64,000 nt of DNA from Mytilus trossulus (GCF_036588685.1 NC_086373.1:108252001-108316000); one strand, 5' to 3'; positions 8,279-48,749 are shown, counted from the stretch's first letter. Notes: a model not told the origin generated them from the letters alone. Program-made: numbers and translations.

Positions 8279-8437
8279 TCGATCCAAATAGGTATACAGC
8301 CTAACAAGTAGAATGTTGAAAAGCATTGAGGACCCAAAATTTCAAAAAGTTGAATCATATTTATTACTTCTTAATATATATTAGTGTAAATATAAAGACT
8401 CGTTGTATTCACTGTATGTATCATTTACCTTCGACCA

Positions 8438-8796: not shown

Positions 8797-8798
8797 GA

Positions 8799-25848: not shown

Positions 25849-26339
25849 CCGCGCTTCATACAAAATGTGCTTCGGACAACGCTTTTACACCACAATGAAT
25901 TTACAAAAAGAAGTATTCAATTCTTAAATAAAATAAAAAATTAAAAAATTAAAACCACAAACGATAAGACATTAAACAATATCCAATTGGAATGACAAAA
26001 TTGACGTTTTTATCAAAAATTAACTGAATTGGTAAAAATGGTGACTCATATTTCGATGTATCTCGTATAAAAGACCGGTGTATCACAATTTGGCATTATT
26101 CTCCTTCATATAATAACAAACCAATAAGGAAAAGAACAAGCATTTCAGAAGAAAAAAAATCTTATAAAAATTCATATAAATGTAAACATTTAAACTGATC
26201 ATTTATTGTCAACCTTGAACTTCTGGAAATATCCTCGGTTTTCTTAATTTATATGAAATTTTCTGTTTGATAAGTGTATTCGGTAAAGAATGGTTATACA
26301 AACAAGATCGATAAGTTTATGCAGAATAAATGTATGCTA

Positions 26340-26772: not shown

Positions 26773-28154
26773 ACGATTCCAATGTTTCCGTAAGTTCGTT
26801 ACATCCTGTCGGTAATTAAGCGCGAATATATGGACGGCGTGCACAAAGTTGAGTCCACAAACGTAACGTCTTCAAGTTTCTAAAATCATTTACGACGTCG
26901 GAAATTCTACCCAGAAAACAGAAGCGTAAACAAAAACACTTGACACTTAGTTTATAACATGATTTAAAACATAAACGTTCAATATATTACTACTTTTCGG
27001 ACAACAAAGCAGAGAAAATGCACATTCCGGAAATTTCAAACAATATATTCTAAGAGCAATGTAAAGGAAAAAATAAACGATTATGTTATGGACCCTTTTC
27101 AGAAAATAGCATCAAAACTTCATTTCTTTAAACTGGGACATTTAAAAAATTGAGGTGTACAGCCTAGACTATCGAATCATTCATATTTTGCTGATTTTTT
27201 TAAACCTCTTGTTATGCACATTTAGAATATCAAGTCATTTCAAAATAAAAAAATAGCAAGTGCATAATAAAAAAAATTACCGATTCTTCCATTACCTTAA
27301 TTAAGCAATTCAAATTACTACTTCTTATACCTAACGAACTACATTTCAAACGCATCCACCATGGTCGATTTTGATTTTTTTGTATGTGAAGTTCGTATGA
27401 CGTCGTAGTCCGAAGTTGTGAATACAATAATGTGTATGCATCGAAAAACTCAACCCTCAAAGTAGTATTGCATAGTTCAAACAGTTGAAACTGTCGATTA
27501 AAAATAAGGCGTATAAAGTCACAATATAATGAATTACTTAAATCATGAAAGACAATAGATAAGTGCAATAGGAAAATTATTATTGAACAAATAAAGTATA
27601 TAAAATCAAATGACACATTTGTTTACCAGTGCATAAACAAACATTCAATCAAGTTGAGAAGAATCTAGTTTAAATAGGGCAATATTTACCGCAGTGTTAT
27701 CATCGCTGTTGCATGGTAAAAATTGATACGCGACACTTGCAGGAGTATTTTATGGAGACTCTATTCTTAAGATAATAATTACCAATTGTATGGAGATTTC
27801 GTAGTCAAAGCTTGGAAGATTCAGTATATCCAGTCTGCAAATTGCGATTAAAAGAGGACAGTTTCCTGGTTTACAGTTTTTTAACGTTATTTATCACTTA
27901 TCAACTATCAAAAAAGTAAAAACACAAAAATACTTAACTCCGAGAAGTCATTGACATAACCAAAAGTATGATTTTTGGCACCAGCTGAATTATATCTGTG
28001 TGACATATACAATCTTCACAAATTTTTCTGTCGAATGAAAAGAAATCATATGTATTATGATCGCAGCATGTGCAGGCATCATTTTGTTATTATTTATAAT
28101 GAGATTGAAAGAGAAAATAAGTTGACATTTTTTATCAAGACCAAAACAAGCGTA

Positions 28155-28690
28155 TATAAATAAACTCATCATAGAAACTAGGATTTAAATTTTGTAATTA
28201 CGTCAGACGCGCGTTTCGTTAAAGATTCATCAGTGATGCTCGAATCCAAAAAAGTTAAAAATGCCAAATAAAGAACGAAGTTGAATAGCATTGAGGACCA
28301 AAAATCCTAAAAGTTTTACCAAATACAGCTACGATAATATATACATGAGGTAGAAAAGCTTAGTATTTCAAATGTACAAAGATTTGTAAATATTTGATTT
28401 ATAAATATGACCATATCAGTGACAATTCATGTCAGCACAAAAGTGCCGACTAATGAGCTGGTGATACCCTCGGAAAATAAAAATGAAAAAAATGAAGAGC
28501 ATTGTAAACCAAATTCCTAAAAGTTTTGCCAAATAAAGCTAACGTAATCTATTCCTTAGGGAGAAAAGCGTTAGTATTTCAAAACTTCTTTTAAACAGTA
28601 AATTTATAAATATGACCATATTAAGGTTAGTTCATGTCAGCACCGAAGTTGTGACTACTTGGCTGTTGATACACCCGGGGAATAAAAACT
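28155..28690 (-). mobile_element. Decayed retrozyme-like hammerhead repeat (ribozyme remnant 28200-28239)
   Basis: Reverse complement GCATCACTGATGAATCTTTAACGAAACGCGCGTCTGACGT; the body is homologous to 7860-8160 and partly duplicated. Confidence 0.65.
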
Positions 28691-29472
28691 ATATATAAAT
28701 AAAAGCATATTTATCCTTGCCTATTGAAATCCAGTTTGCATATCTTTTCCGACTCGGATAAGTAATGAATATATATGTTAATTACTCTAATTATAGGCGA
28801 GAGAGAGAGAGAGGGTGCAATATTTATATTACATCTATTCATCTTTTTTAAAATACACTTGGAGGTTATTTCTTGAACACATGTTGTGATCATTGATAAC
28901 AATATTACAAAACAACTTTATAAATTGTAAAAATATTAACACGCTTTCATGTCTTAATTAAAGAACACAGTAGTATACCGTTGTTTAAAAGTTATAAATC
29001 GATTGAGGGAAAACGAATTCGGGTTACAAACTTAAACCAAGGAAAACCAATGCTGTTTATTTGTTTTGTTTATACATTGTTGTCATTACAGTAAAACGCC
29101 ATGCGACTGCCATACAGTTGAGAGATATAGCTATCTATAAAATCAGGTATAATTCATCAGTTTCTCCATAAGGAAATGCCTATACCAATCAAAAATATGT
29201 ATTCCCATTCGATTATTTATCTGATCTTTTACTATTGTCATTTGATAAGTGACTTTCTGTTTTGAATTTTCTTGGAGTTCGGTATTGTTTGTTATTTAAC
29301 TTTTTACATCATTTAATATACCAGGTGCCTTGTTTCCAGAGCTTCATATTATCAACTATCATAGGATTAACCTAGGATCAAAACAATCTGTGGATAGTTC
29401 TCAACAGTATGGTCTTAGTACAAATCAATTACATTATATTTAAAAGTATGCTGTCGTCTTCATAAACAGTAC

Positions 29473-29637
29473 TGTTGTAAAATCTGCTTACTACATGTAT
29501 AGTAAAGCGCGCCGCTCGATTGTAACGTCACTATAGTTGACGTACTTCCTTTAGCTTTCATTACATTATCAAACTAGCAAGACGTCTGTTATTTTACTTC
29601 ATGCCATTGTACGAAATCTTACCCACTATACGCAAAA
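29473..29637 (+). repeat. LTR1 (165 bp)
   Basis: TGTTGTAAAATC...TATACGCAAAA; identical by eye to LTR4. Confidence 0.95.
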
Positions 29638-29638
29638 T

Positions 29639-29653
29639 TGGTGCCGAGACCAG
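29639..29653 (+). promoter_or_regulatory. Primer-binding site, probably tRNA-His (also at 35352 and 41065)
   Basis: TGGTGCCGAGACCAG lies 1 nt after the LTR. It resembles the complement of the invertebrate tRNA-His 3' end as I recall it (TGGTGCCGTGACCAG). Confidence 0.7.
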
Positions 29654-29661
29654 ATGAAATA

Positions 29662-32600
29662 ATGGAAGCGAAGATGAAAGCCGTCCGAGCGGGACATAAA
29701 GGAGCAGTTACCAAACTCCTGAGGAAATTCGAAGACATTCAACAAAGTTCAGAAGCGGATTACGAAGAAATTTCAACGCTATTAGAAGCAGTCACACAGA
29801 AGAAAAGAATTTTAGAAAATATCAACGAAAAAATATTGGAGCAAACTTCGGATGAAGATGTAGCAGTGGAAATACAGGACTCAGATGAGTACATGTACAA
29901 TTTAGAATATAAATTACGGCAAATTACAAAATTAGCAAAGTCAGTTCAAAATCAGAGTTTACCCGCAAATGAATCAATTTCATTGAATTTGAACCCTCAT
30001 GTCGATAATTTTATACCGAATACCCAATCAGTTCCATCTACATTTATTAGTCAACCTTCAACATCAGCAAACCAACAATATACACATAGCTCAAATTCAC
30101 GCTCATCGTCTAGCACAAACAGCGAGTATCACAAGCTACCAAAGTTAAACTTGCCTATATTTACCGGAGATATACTAGACTGGCAATCATTTTGGGACTC
30201 CTATGAAACCGCGATCCACACAAATCCTACACTGAGTGATGCACAAAAATTCAACTACTTGAAGTCCCTTCTACAAAGCGAAGCGTTACAAACTATAGCA
30301 GGATTTTCCATGACAAACACAAATTACGACAAAGCAATTTCATTACTCCAGGAAAGATACGGGCAAACTCATAAAATAGTCCAAACCTACATGCAGGCCT
30401 TACTTGATTTACAGGCTCCAATTCATACAATTACTAGTCTCCGTAGTTACTATGATAAGACAGAAACTTATGTAAGAGGTCTCGAGTCACTCGGACAGAC
30501 AGACGATACGTACGGATCATTACTAGTTCCTGTTATTCTGAATAAATTACCCGCAGAGATACGTCAACATTTAGCACGAGAACACAGATCCACAAACTGG
30601 ACACTACATGATTTACGCAAAGCGCTTCTCGACGAACTAAATATTATGGAAGCCGGAAAATTACCGGATAAAGTAGAAAGACCACTCGCTACCGCTACAT
30701 TTTTAACTAGTATGAAGTCACGTTCAAACTCAACATTCGGAAAACCCGAAAAGTCAGTTTCGGATAAAAAAACCTTTCATTAAGTCTTGCATTTTTTGCC
30801 ATGAAAATGGGCATATAGCCATTAATTGCACAAAAATCACAACCGTTGATGCACGCACAGCTGTAATTAAGAGAGAGAGGCTATGTTTTAACTGTCTCGG
30901 TCGTCACAAATTAGCTGAATGCAAATCTACAAGCACGTGTAAAAAATGCAACAAACGTCATCATACAAGTATATGTAACAAGAATAACAGTATGAACGAA
31001 TCACATGAACAAGTAAACGAAGATAATGGTAAAACCGTATTACACTCCTCCCTTGCACCACATAAAACATCAAATGTTATATTGAAAACCGCTGTCGCTT
31101 GCGTGAGCTCAGGAACACAGTCAACGGATGCTAATATTTTACTAGACGAAGGAGCACAGAGATCATTCATCACAGAATCACTCGCCAGAAAACTAGATTT
31201 AGGTATAAACGGGACCGAAATAGTTCATCTTTCTGGATTCGGAGAGCAAAACAGACAAGTTAGGCATATGCAATCGGCAACGATTTACTTACAAACTGAC
31301 GATGTAGAAAACATACCGCTCGAGGTACTTATCATTCCTGAAATAGCATTACCGATACAAACGCACATGAAATCAGTAGTTAATATGAGACATTTGCATG
31401 GCTTGAAATTAGCACACCCAATTACCGAAGATGACATGTTTGATATTAATTTACTTATTGGAGCAGATTATTATTGGAGTATAGTAGGAGATAAAATCAT
31501 AAGAGGTAATGGACCGACTGCCGTCGAGTCTAAATTAGGATATTTACTTTCTGGACCAACGACAAGTATTAGAGAATCAAACAGAAGTTCAATATTGAAC
31601 GTTATCGTGTCTCATAAAGCAGAGGAATGTAATTTAACAAAGTTTTGGGAAATCGAGTCCCTTGGTATAGAAGACAGTAACACAAAAACAGAGCTAGAAG
31701 AATTTCAAACGATTTATGAAAACTCATCAGTGTCATTTCTTGACAACAAGTATGTCGCCAAGCTACCTTGGAAAACCAACCACTCGCCATTACCGTCAAA
31801 CAAAACAGTCGCCTTTCGTAGGACTGAAAATGTAATAAGACGTCTTAGTAAAGAACCGCAATTGTTACAAAAGTATGGAGAAATCATCGAAGAACAGGAA
31901 AAGCGAGGGTTTATAGAGAAAGTCGAGGAAGATTTAGTTAAACCAAATACCAAGTTACATTATATCCCGCATCACGCAGTAAAGAAAGATTCCGCAACTA
32001 CACCTATCAGGATCGTGTATGACTGTAGTTGTAGACAAACACCGGACACCGCCAGCTTAAATGATTGCTTACTTAACGTACCTCCGAAGTTGAATAATGT
32101 AACCGCAATACGTTTAAGATTCCGCATGAATAAATACGCCGTATGTACAGATATAGAAAAGGCATTTCTCAACGTTGGACTAGATATTGAAGACCGGGAC
32201 GTCACCAGGTTTTTCTGGTTAAGCAATCCAACAGACCCAAGCAGTTGTATCACGACTTATAGGTTTAAATCTGTATTATTTGGAGCCACCTGTTCACCAT
32301 TTATATTAAATGCTGTTTTATCAAAACACATCAACAACCACCAGACAGAATTTACTGACAATTTAATGAGAGATTTATACGTAGATAATATTGTTTCTAG
32401 TTTTAATTCCGAAGATGAATTGTCACAATATTTCAAAGTTGTTCGCAAGTTATTTACAGATGGTGGATTCAATTTACGCGCATGGGCATCAAATAACAAA
32501 CTATTACAACAACTTGCAGAATCTGAAAAAGTTATCGACACAGAACAGGTAGTAAAAGTATTAGGCTTGCGTTGGAATACAGATCAAGATACACTAAAGT

Positions 32601-35044
32601 ATGCTGAAAATATTCTAGACACGGAAATAGACCTCATCACGAAACGCGAAGTACTTAGAGAATCGTCCAAGATTTATGATCCACTCGGGATCATCAGTCC
32701 AGTTACCGTACGAGGTAAAATGTTTATGCAAACACTTTGGGGTGAAAACATGAAATGGGACGAGCCATTGCCTGATCATATGAGAACAGAATGGATTGAC
32801 ATAAGAAAAGATATTAATGAAGCAACAAAGACCGTTATACATCGTCACTACTTCACAAATTGTTCGGATTCTAATAGCGACAATGTGATACATGTATTCA
32901 TGGATGCTAGCATGAAAGCTTACGGAGCTTGTGCATACCTAGTTTCAGAAGGAAAAAGTTCACTCTTAATGTCAAGAAATCGAGTAGCACCGTTAAAACA
33001 GCTAACAATTCCAAGACTAGAACTAATGGCAGCAGTAATTGGAAGTCGACTTTTATCTCATATTTTGTCTCATATTAATGTTAATCGTGTAATATTATGG
33101 AGCGATAGCCAAATTGTCTTGAGCTGGCTGAGTTCGAAGAAGACATTAAAACAATTTGTCGCTAACAGAGTGAAAGAAATCAAAGAACTGACTGAAAAGT
33201 TTACATGGAAATACTGTCCAAGTGAATCCAATCCCGCCGATTTACTATCAAGAGGAATAACAACTCAAAAGTTTAGAGACAACATGTTATGGATGAACGG
33301 CCCTGATTGGTTAACGAACGAGAATAAATGGCCTGAATGGAAAATAGATGAAACGCAAATTATGCCAGCAAGTGCTCAACAAGAAGTTACAGTTGATACG
33401 ACACAAATACTGAGTACACACAGTGTAACGCAGGAAAATACCATAATTGACATTGACAGGTTTAATTCTTTCAAGAAACTTTTGAGAGTCATAGCCTACG
33501 TTGAAAGATTTATATTTAACTGTAGATCGAGAGAAAAACGTACTGGAAATCTTAATACGCAAGAATTACAGAATGCAACGTATACTTTGATACAAGAAGT
33601 ACAACGAAGACACTTTTTGGACGTAAAGCTAAGCTTACAAAATGGAGAAACAAAGACACACAACTTAGTTAAACAACTGAAACTTTATTTGGATAAGGAC
33701 AACTTGATTCGTTGTGAAGGACGTATTCATAACGCGCCATTGGATGAATCTACTAAATTTCCTATACTGCTACCTGCAAAAGATAGATTAACCAGACTCG
33801 TTATAATGGATGCTCACATTTCACATTTACACTCAGGACTGTCAAGTACCGTCACACTAATCCGTCAGACATATTGGATACCGACTATACGACAAGTTGC
33901 GAACAGTATCTTACGCAAATGTGTGACCTGTAAAAAAGTTAAAGGCCGACCGTATACAGCCCCAGATCCGCCGCCTTTACCGAAGGACAGACTACGAGAA
34001 GCACCGCCGTTCACAGTAACGGGAGTTGATTTTACGGGAGCTCTGACAGTGAAAAACAACGATGGAACTACAAGCAAAGCTTACATATGTTTATTTACAT
34101 GTGCCAGCACTCGCGCTGTGCATTTAGAAGTGGTGGACAATTTAACAGAAGAAACATTTATCCTAGCATTTAGAAGATTCGTTAGTAGAAAATCGTTACC
34201 GAAAACGATGATATCCGACAATGCTACTACCTACATTGCAGCCGCTAAGCATATAGAGAATCTCACACGATCAGCGTCACTTACAGAAACGTTGAACAAC
34301 TATGGTACAACATGGACATTTATACCAAAACGCGCACCGTGGTACGGTGGCTTTTGGGAAAGATTGATAGGGATTACAAAAGATTGTGTTAAGAAGGTTT
34401 TGGGACGTTCTCTTATCAATATAGAACTTCTTAAGACAATTGTGACTGAAGTTGAAACTATTATGAATGACCGTCCACTAACTTACGTATCGTCAGATCC
34501 TTTAGATGAACCGCTAACGCCATCACATTTACTTTACGGACGTCGGATCACAACACTTCCATACCCTGATAATAGAGACTTTGAGCATTCGACGCTTGAG
34601 ATGACTCATGAATCTGTGAATAAACTGTCTCGGTTGAAATCTCAAATTATTCAACAGTTTTGGTGCAAATGGAAACACGAGTATCTTACCTCTCTTCGAG
34701 AATATCATCGAAACACTGGAAAGGACATTCAAACAATTAAAGTTGGAGATGTAGTACAAGTGTACGAAGAATCACCGAGGACAAAGTGGAATCTAGCCGT
34801 TATTGATCAACTGAACATTGGAGGTGACGGGAAAACGAGATCTGCTGTTATACGGACAAAACATGGACTCACTTCACGTCCAATAACAAAACTTTATCCT
34901 CTCGAAGTGTCAGAAAATAGAGACTTTACTATAGACAATAATTGTGATCTCAACAATCCTTCTACGTCTAGAAACTTAAGCCGTAAAGCGAAAAGTGTTG
35001 CCATAGAGAAACTTAAGAAATGGACAAAAGGAAATAATTCATAA
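29662..35044 (+). pseudogene. gag-pol of copy 1, split by a +1 A in the run at 30766-30772
   Basis: Matches the intact copy-3 polyprotein except for A7 versus A6, which gives ORFs 29662-30783 and 30992-35044. Confidence 0.85.
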
Positions 35045-35197
35045 TCAATGACTGTAAATTAAATTCAAGTTTAGTTTTCATATATAGACATTAACTCCTT
35101 TCAGAGACTTCAGAGTTTTCAGTAATTTTTCAAGTGTCAATTTATTTATATTGTAGTTTTTAATATTTTTAATTTCATCTTTTGCGCGGCCCGAGTA

Positions 35198-35350
35198 TGT
35201 TGTAAAATCTGCTTACTACATGTATAGTAAAGCGCGCCGCTCGATTGTAACGTCACTATAGTTGACGTACTTCCTTTAGCTTTCATTACATTATCAAACT
35301 GTTATTTTACTTCATGCCATTGTACAAAATCTTACCCACTATACGCAAAA
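35198..35350 (+). repeat. LTR2 (153 bp, shared internal LTR)
   Basis: As LTR1 but lacks AGCAAGACGTCT; private G>A at 35326. Confidence 0.95.
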
Positions 35351-35374
35351 TTGGTGCCGAGACCAGATGAAATA

Positions 35375-38300
35375 ATGGAAGCGAAGATGAAAGCCGTCCG
35401 AGCGGGACATAAAGGAGCAGTTACCAAACTCCTGAGGAAATTCGAAGACATTCAACAAAGTTCAGAAGCGGATTACGAAGAAATTTCAACGCTATTAGAA
35501 GCAGTCACACAGAAGAAAAGAATTTTAGAAAATATCAACGAAAAAATATTGGAGCAAACTTCGGATGAAGATGTAGCAGTGGAAATACAGGATTCAGATG
35601 AGTACATGTACAATTTAGAATATAAATTACGGCAAATTACAAAATTAGCAAAGTCAGTTCAAAATCAGAGTTTACCCGCAAATGAATCAATTTCATTGAA
35701 TTTGAACCCTCATGCCGATAATTTTATACCGAATACCCAATCAGTTCCATCTACATTTATTAGTCAACCTTCAACATCAGCAAACCAACAATATACACAT
35801 AGCTCAAATTCACGCTCATCGTCTAGCACAAACAGCGAGTATCACAAGCTACCAAAGTTAAACTTGCCTATATTTACCGGAGATATACTAGACTGGCAAT
35901 CATTTTGGGACTCCTATGAAACCGCGATCCACACAAATCCTACACTGAGTGATGCACAAAAATTCAACTACTTGAAGTCCCTTCTACAAAGCGAAGCGTT
36001 ACAAACTATAGCAGGATTTTCCATGACAAACACAAATTACGACAAAGCAATTTCATTACTCCAGGAAAGATACGGGCAAACTCATAAAATAGTCCAAACC
36101 TACATGCAGGCCTTACTTGATTTACAGGCTCCAATTCATACAATTACTAGTCTCCGTAGTTACTATGATAAGACAGAAACTTATGTAAGAGGTCTCGAGT
36201 CACTCGGACAGACAGACGATACGTACGGATCATTACTAGTTCCTGTTATTCTGAATAAATTACTCGCAGAGATACATCAACATTTAGCACGAGAACACAG
36301 ATCCACAAACTGGACACTACATGATTTACGCAAAGCGCTTCTCGACGAACTAAATATTATGGAAGCCGGAAAATTACCGGATAAAGTAGAAAGACCACTC
36401 GCTACCGCTACATTTTTAACTAGTATGAAGTCACTTTCAAACTCAACATTCGGAAAACCCGAAAAGTCAGTTTCGGATAAAAAAACCTTTCATTAAGTCT
36501 TGCATTTTTTGCCATGAAAATGGGCATATAGCCATTAATTGCACAAAAATCACAACCGTTGATGCACGCACAGCTGTAATTAAGAGAGAGAGGCTATGTT
36601 TTAACTGTCTCGGTCGTCACAAATTAGCTGAATGCAAATCTACAAGCACGTGTAAAAAATGCAACAAACGTCATCATACAAGTATATGTAACAAGAATAA
36701 CAGTATGAACGAATCACATGAACAAGTAAACGAAGATAATGGTAAAACCGTATTACACTCCTCCCTTGCACCACATAAAACATCAAATGTTATATTGAAA
36801 ACCGCTGTCGCTTGCGTGAGCTCAGGAACACAGTCAACGGATGCTAATATTTTACTAGACGAAGGAGCACAGAGATCATTCATCACAGAATCACTCGCCA
36901 GAAAACTAGATTTAGGTATAAACGGGACCGAAATAGTTCATCTTTCTGGATTCGGAGAGCAAAACAGACAAGTTAGGCATATGCAATCGGCAACGATTTA
37001 CTTACAAACTGACGATGTAGAAAACATACCGCTCGAGGTACTTATCATTCCTGAAATAGCATTACCGATACAAACGCACATGAAATCAGTAGTTAATATG
37101 AGACATTTGCATGGCTTGAAATTAGCACACCCAATTACCGAAGATGACATGTTTGATATTAATTTACTTATTGGAGCAGATTATTATTGGAGTATAGTAG
37201 GAGATAAAATCATAAGAGGTAATGGACCGACTGCCGTCGAGTCTAAATTAGGATATTTACTTTCTGGACCAACGACAAGTATTAGAGAATCAAACAGAAG
37301 TTCAATATTGAACGTTATCGTGTCTCATAAAGCAGAGGAATGTAATTTAACAAAGTTTTGGGAAATCGAGTCCCTTGGTATAGAAGACAGTAACACAAAA
37401 ACAGAGCTAGAAGAATTTCAAACGATTTATGAAAACTCATCAGTGTCATTTCTTGACAACAAGTATGTCGCCAAGCTACCTTGGAAAACCAACCACTCGC
37501 CATTACCGTCAAACAAAACAGTCGCCTTTCGTAGGACTGAAAATGTAATAAGACGTCTTAGTAAAGAACCGCAATTGTTACAAAAGTATGGAGAAATCAT
37601 CGAAGAACAGGAAAAGCGAGGGTTTATAGAGAAAGTCGAGGAAGATTTAGTTAAACCAAATACCAAGTTACATTATATCCCGCATCACGCAGTAAAGAAA
37701 GATTCCGCAACTACACCTATCAGGATCGTGTATGACTGTAGTTGTAGACAAACACCGGACACCGCCAGCTTAAATGATTGCTTACTTAACGTACCTCCGA
37801 AGTTGAATAATGTAACCGCAATACTTTTAAGATTCCGCATGAATAAATACGCCGTATGTACAGATATAGAAAAGGCATTTCTCAACGTTGGACTAGATAT
37901 TGAAGACCGGGACGTCACCAGGTTTTTCTGGTTAAGCAATCCAACAGACCCAAGCAGTTGTATCACGACTTATAGGTTTAAATCTGTATTATTTGGAGCC
38001 ACCTGTTCACCATTTATATTAAATGCTGTTTTATCAAAACACATCAACAACCACCAGACAGAATTTACTGACAATTTAATGAGAGATTTATACGTAGATA
38101 ATATTGTTTCTAGTTTTAATTCCGAAGATGAATTGTCACAATATTTCAAAGTTGTTCGCAAGTTATTTACAGATGGTGGATTCAATTTACGCGCATGGGC
38201 ATCAAATAACAAACTATTACAACAACTTGCAGAATCTGAAAAAGTTATCGACACAGAACAGGTAGTAAAAGTATTAGGCTTGCGTTGGAATACAGATCAA

Positions 38301-40757
38301 GATACACTAAAGTATGCTGAAAATATTCTCGACACGGAAATAGACCTCATCACGAAACGCGAAGTACTTAGAGAATCGTCCAAGATTTATGATCCACTCG
38401 GGATCATCAGTCCAGTTACCGTACGAGGTAAAATGTTTATGCAAACACTTTGGGGTGAAAACATGAAATGGGACGAGCCATTGCCTGATCATATGAGAAC
38501 AGAATGGATTGACATAAGAAAAGATATTAATGAAGCAACAAAGACCGTTATACATCGTCACTACTTCACAAATTGTTCGGATTCTAATAGCGACAATGTG
38601 ATACATGTATTCATGGATGCTAGCATGAAAGCTTACGGAGCTTGTGCATACCTAGTTTCAGAAGGAAAAAGTTCACTCTTAATGTCAAGAAATCGAGTAG
38701 CACCGTTAAAACAGCTAACAATTCCAAGACTAGAACTAATGGCAGCAGTAATTGGAAGTCGACTTTTATCTCATATTTTGTCTCATATTAATGTTAATCG
38801 TGTAATATTATGGAGCGATAGCCAAATTGTCTTGAGCTGGCTGAGTTCGAAGAAGACATTAAAACAATTTGTCGCTAACAGAGTGAAAGAAATCAAAGAA
38901 CTGACTGAAAAGTTTACATGGAAATACTGTCCAAGTGAATCCAATCCCGCCGATTTACTATCAAGAGGAATAACAACTCAAAAGTTTAGAGACAACATGT
39001 TATGGATGAACGGCCCTGATTGGTTAACGAACGAGAATAAATGGCCTGAATGGAAAATAGATGAAACGCAAATTATGCCAGCAAGTGCTCAACAAGAAGT
39101 TACAGTTGATACGACACAAATACTGAGTACACACAGTGTAACGCAGGAAAATACCATAATTGACATTGACAGGTTTAATTCTTTCAAGAAACTTTTGAGA
39201 GTCATAGCCTACGTTGAAAGATTTATATTTAACTGTAGATCGAGAGAAAAACGTACTGGAAATCTTAATACGCAAGAATTACAGAATGCAACGTATACTT
39301 TGATACAAGAAGTACAACGAAGACACTTTTTGGACGTAAAGCTAAGCTTACAAAATGGAGAAACAAAGACACACAACTTAGTTAAACAACTGAAACTTTA
39401 TTTGGATAAGGACAACTTGATTCGTTGTGAAGGACGTATTCATAACGCGCCATTGGATGAATCTACTAAATTTCCTATACTGCTACCTGCAAAAGATAGA
39501 TTAACCAGACTCGTTATAATGGATGCTCACATTTCACATTTACACTCAGGACTGTCAAGTACCGTCACACTAATCCGTCAGACATATTGGATACCGACTA
39601 TACGACAAGTTGCGAACAGTATCTTACGCAAATGTGTGACCTGTAAAAAAGTTAAAGGCCGACCGTATACAGCCCCAGATCCGCCGCCTTTACCGAAGGA
39701 CAGACTACGAGAAGCACCGCCGTTCACAGTAACGGGAGTTGATTTTACGGGAGCTCTGACAGTGAAAAACAACGATGGAACTACAAGCAAAGCTTACATA
39801 TGTTTATTTACATGTGCCAGCACTCGCGCTGTGCATTTAGAAGTGGTGGACAATTTAACAGAAGAAACATTTATCCTAGCATTTAGAAGATTCGTTAGTA
39901 GAAAATCGTTACCGAAAACGATGATATCCGACAATGCTACTACCTACATTGCAGCCGCTAAGCATATAGAGAATCTCACACGATCAGCGTCACTTACAGA
40001 AACGTTGAACAACTATGGTACAACATGGACATTTATACCAAAACGCGCACCGTGGTACGGTGGCTTTTGGGAAAGATTGATAGGGATTACAAAAGATTGT
40101 GTTAAGAAGGTTTTGGGACGTTCTCTTATCAATATAGAACTTCTTAAGACAATTGTGACTGAAGTTGAAACTATTATGAATGACCGTCCACTAACTTACG
40201 TATCGTCAGATCCTTTAGATGAACCGCTAACGCCATCACATTTACTTTACGGACGTCGGATCACAACACTTCCATACCCTGATAATAGAGACTTTGAGCA
40301 TTCGACGCTTGAGATGACTCATGAATCTGTGAATAAACTGTCTCGGTTGAAATCTCAAATTATTCAACAGTTTTGGTGCAAATGGAAACACGAGTATCTT
40401 ACCTCTCTTCGAGAATATCATCGAAACACTGGAAAGGACATTCAAACAATTAAAGTTGGAGATGTAGTACAAGTGTACGAAGAATCACCGAGGACAAAGT
40501 GGAATCTAGCCGTTATTGATCAACTGAACATTGGAGGTGACGGGAAAACGAGATCTGCTGTTATACGGACAAAACATGGACTCACTTCACGTCCAATAAC
40601 AAAACTTTATCCTCTCGAAGTGTCAGAAAATAGAGACTTTACTATAGACAATAATTGTGATCTCAACAATCCTTCTACGTCTAGAAACTTAAGCCGTAAA
40701 GCGAAAAGTGTTGCCATAGAGAAACTTAAGAAATGGACAAAAGGAAATAATTCATAA
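35375..40757 (+). pseudogene. gag-pol of copy 2, split by the same +1 A (36479-36485)
   Basis: ORFs 35375-36496 and 36705-40757. Confidence 0.85.
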
Positions 40758-40910
40758 TCAATGACTGTAAATTAAATTCAAGTTTAGTTTTCATATATAG
40801 ACATTAACTCCTTTCAGAGACTTCAGAGTTTTCAGTAATTTTTCAAGTGTCAATTTATTTATATTGTAGTTTTTAATATTTTTAATTTCATCTTTTGCGC
40901 GGCCCGAGTA

Positions 40911-41063
40911 TGTTGTAAAATCTGCTTACTACATGTATAGTAAAGCGCGCCGCTCGATTGTAACGTCACTATAGTTGACGTACTTCCTTTAGCTTTCATT
41001 ACATTATCAAACTGTTATTTTACTTCATGCCATTGTACGAAATCTTACCCACTATACGCAAAA
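40911..41063 (+). repeat. LTR3 (153 bp, shared internal LTR)
   Basis: Same 12-bp deletion as LTR2. Confidence 0.95.
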
Positions 41064-41087
41064 TTGGTGCCGAGACCAGATGAAATA

Positions 41088-44000
41088 ATGGAAGCGAAGA
41101 TGAAAGCCGTCCGAGCGGGACATAAAGGAGCAGTTACCAAACTCCTGAGGAAATTCGAAGACATTCAACAAAGTTCAGAAGCGGATTACGAAGAAATTTC
41201 AACGCTATTAGAAGCAGTCACACAGAAGAAAAGAATTTTAGAAAATATCAACGAAAAAATATTGGAGCAAACTTCGGATGAAGATGTAGCAGTGGAAATA
41301 CAGGATTCAGATGAGTACATGTACAATTTAGAATATAAATTACGGCAAATTACAAAATTAGCAAAGTCAGTTCAAAATCAGAGTTTACCCGCAAATGAAT
41401 CAATTTCATTGAATTTGAACCCTCATGCCGATAATTTTATACCGAATACCCAATCAGTTCCATCTACATTTATTAGTCAACCTTCAACATCAGCAAACCA
41501 ACAATATACACATAGCTCAAATTCACGCTCATCGTCTAGCACAAACAGCGAGTATCACAAGCTACCAAAGTTAAACTTGCCTATATTTACCGGAGATATA
41601 CTAGACTGGCAATCATTTTGGGACTCCTATGAAACCGCGATCCACACAAATCCTACACTGAGTGATGCACAAAAATTCAACTACTTGAAGTCCCTTCTAC
41701 AAAGCGAAGCGTTACAAACTATAGCAGGATTTTCCATGACAAACACAAATTACGACAAAGCAATTTCATTACTCCAGGAAAGATACGGGCAAACTCATAA
41801 AATAGTCCAAACCTACATGCAGGCCTTACTTGATTTACAGGCTCCAATTCATACAATTACTAGTCTCCGTAGTTACTATGATAAGACAGAAACTTATGTA
41901 AGAGGTCTCGAGTCACTCGGACAGACAGACGATACGTACGGATCATTACTAGTTCCTGTTATTCTGAATAAATTACCCGCAGAGATACGTCAACATTTAG
42001 CACGAGAACACAGATCCACAAACTGGACACTACATGATTTACGCAAAGCGCTTCTCGACGAACTAAATATTATGGAAGCCGGAAAATTACCGGATAAAGT
42101 AGAAAGACCACTCGCTACCGCTACATTTTTAACTAGTATGAAGTCACTTTCAAACTCAACATTCGGAAAACCCGAAAAGTCAGTTTCGGATAAAAAACCT
42201 TTCATTAAGTCTTGCATTTTTTGCCATGAAAATGGGCATATAGCCATTAATTGCACAAAAATCACAACCGTTGATGCACGCACAGCTGTAATTAAGAGAG
42301 AGAGGCTATGTTTTAACTGTCTCGGTCGTCACAAATTAGCTGAATGCAAATCTACAAGCACGTGTAAAAAATGCAACAAACGTCATCATACAAGTATATG
42401 TAACAAGAATAACAGTATGAACGAATCACATGAACAAGTAAACGAAGATAATGGTAAAACCGTATTACACTCCTCCCTTGCACCACATAAAACATCAAAT
42501 GTTATATTGAAAACCGCTGTCGCTTGCGTGAGCTCAGGAACACAGTCAACGGATGCTAATATTTTACTAGACGAAGGAGCACAGAGATCATTCATCACAG
42601 AATCACTCGCCAGAAAACTAGATTTAGGTATAAACGGGACCGAAATAGTTCATCTTTCTGGATTCGGAGAGCAAAACAGACAAGTTAGGCATATGCAATC
42701 GGCAACGATTTACTTACAAACTGACGATGTAGAAAACATACCGCTCGAGGTACTTATCATTCCTGAAATAGCATTACCGATACAAACGCACATGAAATCA
42801 GTAGTTAATATGAGACATTTGCATGGCTTGAAATTAGCACACCCAATTACCGAAGATGACATGTTTGATATTAATTTACTTATTGGAGCAGATTATTATT
42901 GGAGTATAGTAGGAGATAAAATCATAAGAGGTAATGGACCGACTGCCGTCGAGTCTAAATTAGGATATTTACTTTCTGGACCAACGACAAGTATTAGAGA
43001 ATCAAACAGAAGTTCAATATTGAACGTTATCGTGTCTCATAAAGCAGAGGAATGTAATTTAACAAAGTTTTGGGAAATCGAGTCCCTTGGTATAGAAGAC
43101 AGTAACACAAAAACAGAGCTAGAAGAATTTCAAACGATTTATGAAAACTCATCAGTGTCATTTCTTGACAACAAGTATGTCGCCAAGCTACCTTGGAAAA
43201 CCAACCACTCGCCATTACCGTCAAACAAAACAGTCGCCTTTCGTAGGACTGAAAATGTAATAAGACGTCTTAGTAAAGAACCGCAATTGTTACAAAAGTA
43301 TGGAGAAATCATCGAAGAACAGGAAAAGCGAGGGTTTATAGAGAAAGTCGAGGAAGATTTAGTTAAACCAAATACCAAGTTACATTATATCCCGCATCAC
43401 GCAGTAAAGAAAGATTCCGCAACTACACCTATCAGGATCGTGTATGACTGTAGTTGTAGACAAACACCGGACACCGCCAGCTTAAATGATTGCTTACTTA
43501 ACGTACCTCCGAAGTTGAATAATGTAACCGCAATACTTTTAAGATTCCGCATGAATAAATACGCCGTATGTACAGATATAGAAAAGGCATTTCTCAACGT
43601 TGGACTAGATATTGAAGACCGGGACGTCACCAGGTTTTTCTGGTTAAGCAATCCAACAGACCCAAGCAGTTGTATCACGACTTATAGGTTTAAATCTGTA
43701 TTATTTGGAGCCACCTGTTCACCATTTATATTAAATGCTGTTTTATCAAAACACATCAACAACCACCAGACAGAATTTACTGACAATTTAATGAGAGATT
43801 TATACGTAGATAATATTGTTTCTAGTTTTAATTCCGAAGATGAATTGTCACAATATTTCAAAGTTGTTCGCAAGTTATTTACAGATGGTGGATTCAATTT
43901 ACGCGCATGGGCATCAAATAACAAACTATTACAACAACTTGCAGAATCTGAAAAAGTTATCGACACAGAACAGGTAGTAAAAGTATTAGGCTTGCGTTGG

Positions 44001-46469
44001 AATACAGATCAAGATACACTAAAGTATGCTGAAAATATTCTCGACACGGAAATAGACCTCATCACGAAACGCGAAGTACTTAGAGAATCGTCCAAGATTT
44101 ATGATCCACTCGGGATCATCAGTCCAGTTACCGTACGAGGTAAAATGTTTATGCAAACACTTTGGGGTGAAAACATGAAATGGGACGAGCCATTGCCTGA
44201 TCATATGAGAACAGAATGGATTGACATAAGAAAAGATATTAATGAAGCAACAAAGACCGTTATACATCGTCACTACTTCACAAATTGTTCGGATTCTAAT
44301 AGCGACAATGTGATACATGTATTCATGGATGCTAGCATGAAAGCTTACGGAGCTTGTGCATACCTAGTTTCAGAAGGAAAAAGTTCACTCTTAATGTCAA
44401 GAAATCGAGTAGCACCGTTAAAACAGCTAACAATTCCAAGACTAGAACTAATGGCAGCAGTAATTGGAAGTCGATTTTTATCTCATATTTTGTCTCATAT
44501 TAATGTTAATCGTGTAATATTATGGAGCGATAGCCAAATTGTCTTGAGCTGGCTGAGTTCGAAGAAGACATTAAAACAATTTGTCGCTAACAGAGTGAAA
44601 GAAATCAAAGAACTGACTGAAAAGTTTACATGGAAATACTGTCCAAGTGAATCCAATCCCGCCGATTTACTATCAAGAGGAATAACAACTCAAAAGTTTA
44701 GAGACAACATGTTATGGATGAACGGCCCTGATTGGTTAACGAACGAGAATAAATGGCCTGAATGGAAAATAGATGAAACGCAAATTATGCCAGCAAGTGC
44801 TCAACAAGAAGTTACAGTTGATACGACACAAATACTGAGTACACACAGTGTAACGCAGGAAAATACCATAATTGACATTGACAGGTTTAATTCTTTCAAG
44901 AAACTTTTGAGAGTCATAGCCTACGTTGAAAGATTTATATTTAACTGTAGATCGAGAGAAAAACGTACTGGAAATCTTAATACGCAAGAATTACAGAATG
45001 CAACGTATACTTTGATACAAGAAGTACAACGAAGACACTTTTTGGACGTAAAGCTAAGCTTACAAAATGGAGAAACAAAGACACACAACTTAGTTAAACA
45101 ACTGAAACTTTATTTGGATAAGGACAACTTGATTCGTTGTGAAGGACGTATTCATAACGCGCCATTGGATGAATCTACTAAATTTCCTATACTGCTACCT
45201 GCAAAAGATAGATTAACCAGACTCGTTATAATGGATGCTCACATTTCACATTTACACTCAGGACTGTCAAGTACCGTCACACTAATCCGTCAGACATATT
45301 GGATACCGACTATACGACAAGTTGCGAACAGTATCTTACGCAAATGTGTGACCTGTAAAAAAGTTAAAGGCCGACCGTATACAGCCCCAGATCCGCCGCC
45401 TTTACCGAAGGACAGACTACGAGAAGCACCGCCGTTCACAGTAACGGGAGTTGATTTTACGGGAGCTCTGACAGTGAAAAACAACGATGGAACTACAAGC
45501 AAAGCTTACATATGTTTATTTACATGTGCCAGCACTCGCGCTGTGCATTTAGAAGTGGTGGACAATTTAACAGAAGAAACATTTATCCTAGCATTTAGAA
45601 GATTCGTTAGTAGAAAATCGTTACCGAAAACGATGATATCCGACAATGCTACTACCTACATTGCAGCCGCTAAGCATATAGAGAATCTCACACGATCAGC
45701 GTCACTTACAGAAACGTTGAACAACTATGGTACAACATGGACATTTATACCAAAACGCGCACCGTGGTACGGTGGCTTTTGGGAAAGATTGATAGGGATT
45801 ACAAAAGATTGTGTTAAGAAGGTTTTGGGACGTTCTCTTATCAATATAGAACTTCTTAAGACAATTGTGACTGAAGTTGAAACTATTATGAATGACCGTC
45901 CACTAACTTACGTATCGTCAGATCCTTTAGATGAACCGCTAACGCCATCACATTTACTTTACGGACGTCGGATCACAACACTTCCATACCCTGATAATAG
46001 AGACTTTGAGCATTCGACGCTTGAGATGACTCATGAATCTGTGAATAAACTGTCTCGGTTGAAATCTCAAATTATTCAACAGTTTTGGTGCAAATGGAAA
46101 CACGAGTATCTTACCTCTCTTCGAGAATATCATCGAAACACTGGAAAGGACATTCAAACAATTAAAGTTGGAGATGTAGTACAAGTGTACGAAGAATCAC
46201 CGAGGACAAAGTGGAATCTAGCCGTTATTGATCAACTGAACATTGGAGGTGACGGGAAAACGAGATCTGCTGTTATACGGACAAAACATGGACTCACTTC
46301 ACGTCCAATAACAAAACTTTATCCTCTCGAAGTGTCAGAAAATAGAGACTTTACTATAGACAATAATTGTGATCTCAACAATCCTTCTACGTCTAGAAAC
46401 TTAAGCCGTAAAGCGAAAAGTGTTGCCATAGAGAAACTTAAGAAATGGACAAAAGGAAATAATTCATAA
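41088..46469 (+). CDS. Intact BEL/Pao Gag-Pol polyprotein (copy 3)
   Basis: Gag (LPKLNLPIFTGD..WQSFWD), three CCHC knuckles, protease LLDEGAQRSFI, RT YVDN, RNase H HVFMDAS and integrase (H..H..CVTC; GVDFTG/SDNAT/WERL) in BEL/Pao order. First ATG is at 41088. Confidence 0.95.
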   Translation: MEAKMKAVRAGHKGAVTKLLRKFEDIQQSSEADYEEISTLLEAVTQKKRILENINEKILEQTSDEDVAVEIQDSDEYMYNLEYKLRQITKLAKSVQNQSLPANESISLNLNPHADNFIPNTQSVPSTFISQPSTSANQQYTHSSNSRSSSSTNSEYHKLPKLNLPIFTGDILDWQSFWDSYETAIHTNPTLSDAQKFNYLKSLLQSEALQTIAGFSMTNTNYDKAISLLQERYGQTHKIVQTYMQALLDLQAPIHTITSLRSYYDKTETYVRGLESLGQTDDTYGSLLVPVILNKLPAEIRQHLAREHRSTNWTLHDLRKALLDELNIMEAGKLPDKVERPLATATFLTSMKSLSNSTFGKPEKSVSDKKPFIKSCIFCHENGHIAINCTKITTVDARTAVIKRERLCFNCLGRHKLAECKSTSTCKKCNKRHHTSICNKNNSMNESHEQVNEDNGKTVLHSSLAPHKTSNVILKTAVACVSSGTQSTDANILLDEGAQRSFITESLARKLDLGINGTEIVHLSGFGEQNRQVRHMQSATIYLQTDDVENIPLEVLIIPEIALPIQTHMKSVVNMRHLHGLKLAHPITEDDMFDINLLIGADYYWSIVGDKIIRGNGPTAVESKLGYLLSGPTTSIRESNRSSILNVIVSHKAEECNLTKFWEIESLGIEDSNTKTELEEFQTIYENSSVSFLDNKYVAKLPWKTNHSPLPSNKTVAFRRTENVIRRLSKEPQLLQKYGEIIEEQEKRGFIEKVEEDLVKPNTKLHYIPHHAVKKDSATTPIRIVYDCSCRQTPDTASLNDCLLNVPPKLNNVTAILLRFRMNKYAVCTDIEKAFLNVGLDIEDRDVTRFFWLSNPTDPSSCITTYRFKSVLFGATCSPFILNAVLSKHINNHQTEFTDNLMRDLYVDNIVSSFNSEDELSQYFKVVRKLFTDGGFNLRAWASNNKLLQQLAESEKVIDTEQVVKVLGLRWNTDQDTLKYAENILDTEIDLITKREVLRESSKIYDPLGIISPVTVRGKMFMQTLWGENMKWDEPLPDHMRTEWIDIRKDINEATKTVIHRHYFTNCSDSNSDNVIHVFMDASMKAYGACAYLVSEGKSSLLMSRNRVAPLKQLTIPRLELMAAVIGSRFLSHILSHINVNRVILWSDSQIVLSWLSSKKTLKQFVANRVKEIKELTEKFTWKYCPSESNPADLLSRGITTQKFRDNMLWMNGPDWLTNENKWPEWKIDETQIMPASAQQEVTVDTTQILSTHSVTQENTIIDIDRFNSFKKLLRVIAYVERFIFNCRSREKRTGNLNTQELQNATYTLIQEVQRRHFLDVKLSLQNGETKTHNLVKQLKLYLDKDNLIRCEGRIHNAPLDESTKFPILLPAKDRLTRLVIMDAHISHLHSGLSSTVTLIRQTYWIPTIRQVANSILRKCVTCKKVKGRPYTAPDPPPLPKDRLREAPPFTVTGVDFTGALTVKNNDGTTSKAYICLFTCASTRAVHLEVVDNLTEETFILAFRRFVSRKSLPKTMISDNATTYIAAAKHIENLTRSASLTETLNNYGTTWTFIPKRAPWYGGFWERLIGITKDCVKKVLGRSLINIELLKTIVTEVETIMNDRPLTYVSSDPLDEPLTPSHLLYGRRITTLPYPDNRDFEHSTLEMTHESVNKLSRLKSQIIQQFWCKWKHEYLTSLREYHRNTGKDIQTIKVGDVVQVYEESPRTKWNLAVIDQLNIGGDGKTRSAVIRTKHGLTSRPITKLYPLEVSENRDFTIDNNCDLNNPSTSRNLSRKAKSVAIEKLKKWTKGNNS

Positions 46470-46622
46470 TCAATGACTGTAAATTAAATTCAAGTTTAGT
46501 TTTCATATATAGACATTAACTCCTTTCAGAGACTTCAGAGTTTTCAGTAATTTTTCAAGTGTCAATTTATTTATATTGTAGTTTTTAATATTTTTAATTT
46601 CATCTTTTGCGCGGCCCGAGTA

Positions 46623-46787
46623 TGTTGTAAAATCTGCTTACTACATGTATAGTAAAGCGCGCCGCTCGATTGTAACGTCACTATAGTTGACGTACTTCCT
46701 TTAGCTTTCATTACATTATCAAACTAGCAAGACGTCTGTTATTTTACTTCATGCCATTGTACGAAATCTTACCCACTATACGCAAAA
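46623..46787 (+). repeat. LTR4 (165 bp)
   Basis: Full length, followed by TSD AGTAC. Confidence 0.95.
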
Positions 46788-47124
46788 AGTACATTTAATT
46801 TGATAATGAAACTGTGTTGAAAAAGACAGCAATGGTTTTATCATTTTACTGTCTTTTTTTTTCCATAGATATTTTACCGCTTATTGTGTGTTACTATATT
46901 TAATATCTGTGCTTGTTGCAGTTGCTATATTTTTAGTTGCCTAGGTAAAAATCTACATATTAGCTGTTCCAAATCTCATATTAACTTCTCAAGATTTTCC
47001 CTCCCTGAATAAGCATATATTCTTACTTTTGTGATTATTATTAACAACATATAAATATAACTGTAATCAAATCTGAACTGTTAGATGCATTCGTGTGTTT
47101 GACTATGTTAGATTGAACCAATGG

Positions 47125-47484
47125 TATGCACTGCACTTTCTCTTCACTGAAATAAATGTCTCAAAAAATGAATGACCAATATATGGATAGCAAGTTTGAT
47201 TTAGAGTCAACGTGTTTAAATATAAAGAAAACCACATTTCCAGTTTTATTTTTTTAAATTTACCTGTGGTAAAGAAACACTGATTTAAATACAGTTGACG
47301 CAATATTGTTAAACGTAAAAGTAGACAAGACTGATAAGCGGTAAGTTGATTGGAAACTTAACCATAGGTTGCAGAAAATTAAGGAATACATGAAATTTGT
47401 TTTTGAAATTTTTTAGTTATCATACACATTTTACTTGTTTGGGTCATATTAATTAGAATTTAATCGTTTTTGTGGTTATTGTAG
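47125..47484 (+). promoter_or_regulatory. Conserved upstream block and putative 5'-UTR intron (47341-47484) of copy F
   Basis: Same motif series as 8438-8796; GCG|GTAAGT donor and TTGTAG acceptor 2 nt before the ATG. Confidence 0.55.
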
Positions 47485-47486
47485 TG

Positions 47487-48749
47487 ATGGCAGCTGCACC
47501 AAACGTTTGTGACGGCTGCACAAAAGATGGAAAAGTAGAATCATTTTGCGTCAATTGTGAGCAGCTTTATTGCCAGGAATGTACCGTTTATCATATGAAA
47601 TGTAAAGTCACACGTTCACATATCTTAATGGATGCATCAAACGTTGACACATATAACGCTCATTCTTCAATTGATGTTAAGTGTGGCAATGAATGTGGGG
47701 AGCAGGCAGTAGTTCTTTGTTTGGATTGTAAACAGTTACTTTGCAACGACTGTTCAGAGAAGCATTCAATGCTTAAAGCAACCAAAGGACATAATACAAT
47801 AACCGCGAAACAACTTGTTAGAGAAGAAACAGCATCCTTATCTTCTGACTGCGTTTACTCTGAACAAACTTCTGTAATTTCACATCCACAGGAGTTAGTG
47901 CATGCACAAGTTCAAGTTGAGAAAGGTCCACACTCGGGGACATTTTTGCATGAGTTCATGAGTTCTGCTCCAGGAGATAAAGAGTTAACTCGAGTTCGTG
48001 GAATAGTGCTTCTTTTCGATGGCAGAATTATTATAGCCGATTATAAAAATCGGAGTTTGAAACTATTTAGCCGTGAAATGAAATTTGAAATGGCAAAGGA
48101 TATAAAAGATGACCCAAGAGGAATGGTTGCTTCTGCTTATGATAATGTAATAGTCACTTTTGCTGATAAGAAGGAAATACGAATATATGAAATAGAAAAT
48201 AAAAAGATACGTACTAAAAAAAAGGTAAATGTGAAAGAAAAACCTTACAGTATTGCTTATAATAAAGACCACTTTGCGGTTGAACACGGTGAGGGAGAAG
48301 ATGGCACAATTCGTATTTATGACCAGCACATAAGAGAAATCTTTATCATACCGGGTAGTACCAGAAGCTTTGGACAATTTACTGGCAATACAATACGCCT
48401 TGCCTTAGATTTATCAAAATATGTCATATTTGTTGTAGATATAGCAAAGGAGTTGGTCCATTGTGTTGATTTTAAAGGTGGGCTGATCTGGACAGTAAAA
48501 GTCGGAAGTCCTAGAGGAATTGTGTTCCACAATAACATGCTATTTGTTGCCAGCAGTACAGAAAACAAGATAATTCAAATGAATGCTGTAGATGGAATAG
48601 TTTACTCTATGTTAGACGAAGACAATAGAATTAGGCGTCCTCGGTACATTGCCTACAATCCTGATTCGAAAAAAATGGCTGTTGAAATCGATGGAAACCA
48701 TATAAAACTGTATAATATTACTGGCTTACAAAAGGGTTTTAACTTTTAG
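47487..48749 (+). CDS. TRIM-like 2xB-box + NHL protein (copy F, 420 aa)
   Basis: Intact ORF, closest to copy B. The ATG at 47487 aligns with the paralogue starts. Confidence 0.9.
   Translation: MAAAPNVCDGCTKDGKVESFCVNCEQLYCQECTVYHMKCKVTRSHILMDASNVDTYNAHSSIDVKCGNECGEQAVVLCLDCKQLLCNDCSEKHSMLKATKGHNTITAKQLVREETASLSSDCVYSEQTSVISHPQELVHAQVQVEKGPHSGTFLHEFMSSAPGDKELTRVRGIVLLFDGRIIIADYKNRSLKLFSREMKFEMAKDIKDDPRGMVASAYDNVIVTFADKKEIRIYEIENKKIRTKKKVNVKEKPYSIAYNKDHFAVEHGEGEDGTIRIYDQHIREIFIIPGSTRSFGQFTGNTIRLALDLSKYVIFVVDIAKELVHCVDFKGGLIWTVKVGSPRGIVFHNNMLFVASSTENKIIQMNAVDGIVYSMLDEDNRIRRPRYIAYNPDSKKMAVEIDGNHIKLYNITGLQKGFNF

Follow-up and report, generated by a model that had tools for sequence, protein, structure and literature searches.

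The 64,000-nucleotide window of the Mytilus trossulus genome analysed here (GCF_036588685.1 NC_086373.1:108252001-108316000; positions are counted from its first letter) contains, at 29473-46787, four long terminal repeats (LTRs) and three internal regions of a BEL/Pao retrotransposon arranged head-to-tail (Table 1). Comparison of the window with itself by BLAST gave a single 11.6-kb match (29468-41063 against 35194-46787, 99.67% identity). This match, together with boundaries read at base level, confirms the head-to-tail trimer with shared LTRs that a first-pass annotation of this DNA had placed at 29468..46792. The array follows a simple rule, n internal regions alternating with n+1 LTRs in one orientation, with host DNA between units absent. 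Each inner junction passes from the 3' end of an internal region through one LTR to the TGG of a primer-binding-site-like stretch, with zero host bases and zero duplication. A perfect 5-bp target-site duplication (AGTAC, the expected length being 4-6 bp) is found on either flank of the array and nowhere inside it; five matching flank letters would arise by chance with p = 0.0017, given the base composition of the flanks. The first-pass description of single LTRs between units, no internal duplication and one outer AGTAC pair is therefore accurate at base level, and its claim of one integration rather than three holds on the single outer duplication, the clean inner junctions and the identical outer LTRs. 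The tandem is real in the assembled sequence, and its three-copy state is known here from the assembly alone.

Three separate or nested insertions are ruled out, as inner duplications and host DNA are both absent, and so is recombination between two neighbouring independent insertions, from which a matching duplication would not result (by the criterion set out in PMC1950507). The letters AGTA open the target site (29468-29472) and, with a one-base offset, also precede the inner LTRs (35194-35197), at the 3' end of the element itself, probably by chance.

Table 1. Features of the BEL/Pao array and of the adjoining host gene.
Feature	Position	Strand	Remarks
Target-site duplication, left copy, AGTAC	29468..29472	.	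junction read at base level
LTR1, 165 bp, TG...AA, identical to LTR4	29473..29637	+	
Primer-binding-site-like stretch, TGG start, one base past LTR1	29639..29653	+	predicted from sequence
Unit 1 gag part, 373 codons, ended by A-run frameshift near 30766	29662..30783	+	
Unit 1 downstream frame: zinc knuckles, protease, reverse transcriptase, RNase H, integrase	30716..35044	+	1442 codons, stop-to-stop
LTR2 (shared), 153 bp; 12-bp deletion at 35298/35299; private substitution at 35326	35198..35350	+	
Unit 2 gag part, 373 codons, frameshift as in unit 1, near 36479	35375..36496	+	
Unit 2 downstream frame	36429..40757	+	1442 codons, stop-to-stop
Unit 2 switch interval, unit-3-type to unit-1-type substitutions	38330..38763	.	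candidate crossover of a putative second duplication
LTR3 (shared), 153 bp; identical 12-bp deletion, at 41011/41012	40911..41063	+	
Unit 3 Gag-Pol, single frame, 1793 aa	41088..46469	+	
LTR4, 165 bp, TG...AA, identical to LTR1	46623..46787	+	
Target-site duplication, right copy, AGTAC	46788..46792	.	junction also in one contig of run X1
Host B-box/beta-propeller gene	47487..48749 (47457-48749 in the cluster listing)	+	ATG 695 bases past the insertion

The 165-bp length reported for the LTRs in the first-pass annotation applies to the identical outer two, but both inner LTRs are 153 bp long and lack the same 12 bases (corresponding to 29574-29585 of LTR1), with CT dinucleotides bounding the deletion. 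Neither this common deletion nor the TG...AA ends discussed below had been recorded in that annotation. The deletion site spans a small predicted hairpin; neither form of the LTR folded better than shuffled sequences (z -0.29 and -0.90). No AATAAA, ATTAAA or TATAAA is found within the LTR to mark its U3/R/U5 borders or to show what the deletion affects. Units 2 and 3 begin from a deleted LTR and units 1 and 2 finish in one, which weakens the suggestion that full-element transcripts could arise from each of the units.

The protein encoded by unit 3 gave Pfam matches in the order DUF1759, DUF1758, RVT_1, Peptidase_A17, Integrase_H2C2 and DUF5641. Its layout comprises DUF1759, three Cys-His boxes (at 376, 408 and 426, the third with HH), the DUF1758 protease, reverse transcriptase (RT), Peptidase_A17/RNase H, the integrase zinc finger and core, and DUF5641, i.e. 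the order Gag, protease, RT, RNase H, integrase, with motifs at 493, 906, 1078 and 1385-1566. Members of the Belpaoviridae encode Gag followed by protease, RT, RNase H and integrase in one or two frames (PMC8742986), and the triple Cys-His box in Gag is described as a Pao/BEL hallmark (PMC554778). The motifs typical of Pao/BEL elements, LLDxG and LIG in the protease, YVDD or YVDN in RT and DAS in RNase H, are represented by LLDEG at 493, an LIG read in the translation, YVDN at 906 (invariant in 10/10 aligned proteins) and DAS at 1081, while the integrase has a zinc finger plus D1456, D1519 and E1566. The BEL/Pao identity given in the first-pass annotation is well founded on the Pfam order, the Cys-His boxes and the protease, RT and RNase H motifs. 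Its description of copy 3 as fully intact is correct for the open frame and all catalytic motifs, but not for position 1130, where a residue kept in 10/10 outside homologous proteins and in units 1 and 2 is substituted, nor for the 5' LTR, which carries the deletion.

A short A-run carries a frameshift in units 1 and 2, whereas the contigs of all four public sequencing runs are open there (the 17 runs labelled as DNA, or guessed to be so, were accessible as contigs, from which rare variants are dropped, and raw reads came from three RNA runs; the comparison covered single-unit stretches). The frameshift is either a lesion or a sequence error; a programmed -1 frameshift at the A-run was rejected, unit 3 and the contigs of 4/4 runs being open there. 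The gag ATG of unit 1 is the 25th base past LTR1, as stated in the first-pass annotation. In all three units a two-codon frame (29654-29664 in unit 1) follows the primer-binding-site-like stretch, and its stop overlaps the gag ATG (TAATG), which could be a stop-restart arrangement or chance.

The closest named proteins are from Mytilus (74% identity). In the 90% cluster of the window protein five of the eight members are named Mytilus trossulus, and the lengths and unit-specific residues of the other three match the three frames of the window. With 5.9 kb the monomer is inside the genome range given for Belpaoviridae by the International Committee on Taxonomy of Viruses (ICTV; 4.2-10 kb), and its 165-bp LTR is below the corresponding LTR range (0.2-1.2 kb). 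We take the latter range as descriptive, because relatives have LTRs of 119-206 bp and the minimum in the Suzu clade is 109 bp (PMC3118150). All three related loci with both LTRs visible measure 5766-6195 bp (LTRs 119-206 bp), so that the compactness remarked upon in the first-pass annotation stands as a size but is ordinary for the group. In the ICTV profile the primer-binding site is 18 nt long and complementary to a tRNA of the host, Arg or Gly, and a primer-binding-site-like site of the same kind as in the array was present in 28 of the 41 related loci examined. The 14 bases preceding LTR2-4 are G+C-rich and not mostly purine, against a family expectation of a polypurine tract of ~10 nt, and relatives are similar there. 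Target-site duplications of 5 bp flank the relatives L069 and L070, with none in L056. No tandem junction was demonstrable among the relatives; metagenome contigs of about one unit with overlapping ends occur, but the assembly of a single element would yield these too.

Two of these relatives, L069 (4237-10431) and L070 (4495-10367), are BEL/Pao elements complete with TG...CA termini and a 5-bp duplication each, and lie in contigs titled as bacterial metagenome-assembled genomes (MAGs; Poribacteria and Acidobacteriota). Their flanks have 33-44% G+C and few long frames, and these contigs are most likely animal host DNA carried into bacterial bins; L068, from a Thiodiazotropha MAG, appears to be a similar case. 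Direct repeats of 2.1-2.3 kb are found at the element ends of L048 (1221-3512 against 5388-7682, 99.8%) and L059 (1-2098 against 5624-7718, 92.5%), representing either very long LTRs or local duplications.

All four LTRs of the array stop at AA, three bases beyond the last CA, and not at the canonical TG...CA terminus; this end presupposes that the perfect 5-mer is the target-site duplication. In runs X1 and X3 a high-depth LTR contig stops at 46785, one base beyond CA, where copies branch, and single contigs of X1, X3 and X10 continue to 46787 and only there pass into the primer-binding site or other sequence. A TA end in other copies is suggested by loose ends in X10 and X22, while seven X22 reads from one place depart right after CA, and a CA end is also a possible reading. 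Among the related loci, CA lies within four bases of TGG in 18 of 21 distinct LTR-to-primer-site junctions; of the three junctions lacking it, two belong to the closest relatives having such a junction (74% and 58% identity). A CA end was present in 6/6 relatives with a clear 3' end (L038, L056, L060, L065, L069 and L070; 35-50% identity). The non-CA end is likely a trait of the element family rather than of the trimer. A CA end with an imperfect 8-bp duplication (7/8 letters) is less likely than the perfect 5-mer, and the AA end may alternatively consist of unprocessed extra bases. Plant LTR elements with non-CA ends and the AG...TT-type ends of Zam elements are known (10.1101/137141, PMC3601003), and the available text of these two papers does not name TG..AA.

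We counted a total of 9 differences between units 1 and 2, 8 between units 1 and 3, and 5 between units 2 and 3, close to the 'about ten' of the first-pass annotation, with internal substitutions over 5.56 kb amounting to 7, 6 and 3 respectively. The units match one another exactly over at most 2708 consecutive bases. When changes were polarized by outside proteins and public contigs, those derived in one unit alone were 30002 and 32112 in unit 1, 36264, 36276 and 35326 (the last in LTR2) in unit 2, and 44475 in unit 3; position 29880 has a third letter in the public runs and hence no polarity. Two changes are common to units 2 and 3. At 30722 they share a residue change where unit 1 has the residue of all five covering outside homologues, and at 32617 they share a letter where unit 1 agrees with contig 29 of X3, whose 4 differences are all explained at other listed places. 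These two shared derived sites would favour the topology ((2,3),1). Along the six substitutions that distinguish units 1 and 3, unit 2 has the unit 3 letter five times in a row and then, at the sixth, that of unit 1, as expected after one crossover in the interval 38330-38763; with a chance expectation of 1 in 6 this is suggestive only.

In the public runs, X1 had no differing letters from the window flanks across 440, 674 and 323 bases. One X1 contig crosses the right junction, comprising the final 30 bases of the LTR, AGTAC and part of the flank (323 bases without a differing letter); its 30 letters on the LTR side are one below the bridging threshold, and X1 is possibly the source sample of the assembly. 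Contig 15 of X10 contains the right flank with 227 other letters in place of the LTR, beginning four bases before the duplication, and this starting point is compatible with the left flank; an empty site in X10 is likely. X3 gave no cover at the right junction. The 12-bp deletion was not seen, among the matches listed, in three DNA contig sets (from which rare variants are dropped) or in 14 RNA reads, which we do not take as absence. At 46632 (LTR position 10, with the same letter in LTR1-3) the array differs from every covering contig of X1, X3 and X10, and this letter appears to be a private mark of the founder of the array, useful for tracing daughters. Unit 1 differs from the main element contig of X1 at 9 of 1822 bases. 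Depths in X1 (~740 for the LTR node, ~290-330 for internal nodes and 18-32 for the flanks) would be compatible with a multi-copy family consisting mainly of monomers, but they are no measure of copy number and were not used as evidence. In ~6% of run X22 there were 14 reads on the element, with no start or end peak, and in runs X2, X13, X17 and X18 (classed as RNA by guess only) 0.29-0.67 of the words were present.

The first-pass annotation left it undecided whether the multimer formed before or after integration, and the data lean to after, in two steps. We favour, with a probability of about 0.55, a history of two duplications of one integrated copy, separate in time and both by unequal homologous recombination. 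Anatomy and difference pattern are direct observations, whereas the proposed order of events is deduced from a deletion and two shared sites. Integrase would first have inserted one 5.9-kb copy from an active sub-lineage, leaving AGTAC on either side. Its 3' LTR would then have recombined with the 5' LTR on the sister chromatid or homologue to give a dimer with one inner LTR, which, at that time or later, would have lost 12 bases between two CT dinucleotides. Finally, two dimer alleles may have paired with a shift of one unit, and a crossover within the 3' half of the unit, perhaps at 38330-38763, would have copied the deleted inner LTR and left a middle unit that is mostly unit-3-like. Such an array is predicted to expand and collapse, yielding monomer, dimer and solo LTR alleles.

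This history is favoured because of the single outer duplication, the identity of LTR1 and LTR4, the ((2,3),1) topology, the crossover pattern and the neutral-looking changes among units. As to the last, 6 of the 8 coding changes among units are nonsynonymous (an expected fraction of 0.78 without selection), whereas for 10 sites that set all three units apart from the main contigs of three or more of the four runs the figure is 3/10 (p = 0.0014 against neutral; Fisher p = 0.077 for the contrast between the two sets). The founder would thus have come from a lineage under selection and its units would then have drifted. In Drosophila, too, tandems with a shared LTR are usually ascribed to unequal LTR recombination (PMC5932611).

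Several points weigh against this history. Support for the topology comes from two sites only, and the A-run frameshift groups units 1 and 2 instead, lying between unit-3-type markers; it contradicts both ((2,3),1) and the crossover pattern and needs slippage, conversion or sequence error. With only 165 bp, the LTR offers little length for the first exchange, and the 12-bp deletion is not explained by unequal exchange alone. The 10 family-versus-array sites were drawn from 40 of 472 rows, with 4 of 14 classified rows left out, as fewer than three runs showed the difference in their main contig. No monomer or dimer allele of the locus was seen in the public-run contigs examined. Recombination and multimer insertion could likewise not be separated in the study of rice tandems (PMC11899658).

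It is possible, though doubtful, that complementary DNA (cDNA) of the element, linear or as a one-LTR circle, recombined independently of integrase into a resident copy in one or both steps. A circle with a deleted LTR whose crossover with the resident 3' LTR falls upstream of the deletion would place the deletion inside and leave the outer LTR intact, so that deleted inner and intact outer LTRs are explained directly, and as well as by two unequal exchanges. The deletion, between CT dinucleotides and across a hairpin, could itself be a reverse-transcription slip, and a non-CA end might leave more cDNA unintegrated. The process is experimentally established for Tf1, for which most such insertions are tandems with one LTR between (PMC11042837). 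Set against this, no contig or read over an LTR in any of the four runs has the deletion (contigs dropping rare variants), and the differences between units show no excess of synonymous changes. Furthermore, the units are ~0.1% apart and unit 1 stands 9/1822 bases from the X1 contig, which would restrict the donor to the resident copy or a very close sister.

We consider it unlikely that the multimer was pre-formed, by template switching of co-packaged RNAs or by reverse transcription of a read-through transcript of an array elsewhere, and inserted whole by integrase. An origin of this kind has been suggested in cereals, for elements of two units (PMC1950507), and in rice, for its tandems (PMC11899658), and it predicts one duplication, identical outer LTRs and inner LTRs free to differ, as observed. 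Identical outer LTRs are equally expected from an origin in situ, where ~0.12% divergence corresponds to ~0.2 differences per 165 bp. Reverse transcription has an error rate of ~1e-5 per base, and a single round would give near-identical units and not the nested pattern of 3-7 substitutions; a 17-kb cDNA or two template switches would also be required.

Somewhat less probable again is that the copy number is an artefact of assembly, such as would follow if one contig had been stacked up from monomer and dimer alleles or from similar copies of the family. In the public records examined neither the array nor an inner junction is spanned, the deleted LTR was unseen in public contigs, and the frameshift of units 1 and 2 lies in a homopolymer and is absent from the contigs of 4/4 runs, all of which an artefact would account for. 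It sits poorly with three distinct units carrying private as well as shared letters, and with a longest exact repeat of a length that would be resolved if the assembly was built from accurate long reads; the right junction was also recovered in X1, with the limits on that contig given above. Least credible, and in our view very improbable, is that both inner LTRs have lost, with the 12 bases, part of their signal for 3'-end processing, causing read-through and allowing a 17-kb trimer to be copied and inserted whole by an integrase accepting a non-CA end, in which case the array would be a mobile multimer whose open-frame unit provides protein for two frameshifted units.

The array is located inside a cluster of single-frame genes with B-box and NHL/beta-propeller domains (4131-5420, minus strand; 8772-10049, plus; 18995-19516, plus; 21609-22194; and 47457-48749, plus), of which three have ~430 codons, one is cut at 173 codons and one is a decayed fragment; the ATG of the last of these genes lies 695 bases downstream of the array. 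A very high-copy dispersed repeat (~27940-29300) adjoins the insertion on the left, with thousands of contigs in each of four runs, and partly recurs at 7576-8351 and 10491-10735. A repeat of ~500 bases (77-87% identity, both orientations, some copies in tandem) occupies 23920-25850, 51684-52260, 55491-57293 and 59881-60882, and tandem repeats with periods of 21, 37, 35, 189 and 203 bases were found at 58400-59321, 62033-62179, 63581-63786 and 13469-14254. A short frame on the minus strand (53687-53986) reads like a reverse-transcriptase fragment and is, we presume from its motif, of a Penelope-type element.

As assembled, the array belongs to the class of tandem LTR retrotransposons, a published kind. 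In the rice pangenome 266 tandem candidates were reported, polymorphic and with their origin left open, and the plant tandems TLI1 and TLI2 described there resemble the array in their alternating LTRs and internal regions, shared inner LTRs, single 5-bp duplication, high identity and inferred single insertion (Morales-Diaz et al., 2025, PMC11899658). The plant tandems are Gypsy and Copia elements, the two loci studied being dimers, and are documented by spanning reads and multiple haplotypes (PMC11899658), whereas the mussel array is BEL/Pao, has three units and a marked inner LTR, and is represented solely by an assembled sequence. Tandems in Drosophila are also head-to-tail with a shared LTR, and were attributed mostly to ectopic LTR recombination and detected in every family with LTRs short enough for detection (McGurk and Barbash, 2018, PMC5932611); they were inferred from short-read junctions across strains, with no base-level history of a single array in the available text of that report. 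Tandems of Tf1/Tf2 arise by Rad52-dependent, integrase-independent insertion of cDNA (Li et al., 2022, PMC11042837). That mechanism was proven by experiment in yeast, while for the mussel array cDNA insertion is a rival unseparated from unequal exchange. Tandems of Ty5 and Ty1, cited in the Tf1/Tf2 paper, are reportedly known as well.

Coding capacity and shared LTRs are also found in the tandem HERV-K(HML-2) proviruses at 7p22.1 and 6q14.1 (Pasternack et al., 2025, PMC11807958), which are retroviral, have three LTRs and two internal regions and are polymorphic between individuals. The biv-TRIM arrays of bivalves follow the same rule of n+1 repeats and n internal regions (Satovic et al., 2019, PMC6934838); they are composed of tiny non-coding elements with up to 58 repeats, in contrast to the 5.7 kb per unit and Gag-Pol coding of the mussel array. 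Mollusc BEL/Pao elements share with it the domain order, the triple Cys-His box and the protease and RT motifs (PMC6238403, PMC8742986, PMC554778), the array departing from Belpaoviridae in its LTR, below the ICTV range, and its TG...AA end. Plant elements with non-TGCA termini are similar in their short LTRs, non-CA end and 5-bp duplication but are mostly Copia, and of the seven motifs named in the available part of that study TG..TA is one and TG..AA is not (Ou and Jiang, 10.1101/137141). No description of a coding BEL/Pao tandem in a mollusc was found in the literature searched, most subscription journals being outside its reach, and under the term 'tandem' the accessible portions of a mollusc survey (PMC6238403) and a BEL/Pao survey (PMC3118150) gave no passage on such an array.

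The locus represents a clean, young example of a known rearrangement in coding mollusc BEL/Pao elements, otherwise undescribed in the literature searched. Its value lies in the deletion-marked inner LTRs and the few phased differences between units; a locus marked in this way could discriminate between unequal exchange, cDNA recombination and insertion of a whole multimer, a choice that the rice study left open. No function of the array is demonstrated, and that copy-number alleles might affect the host B-box gene downstream is conjecture. For annotation, searches that require TG...CA would misplace or miss a family with a TG...AA or TG...TA end.

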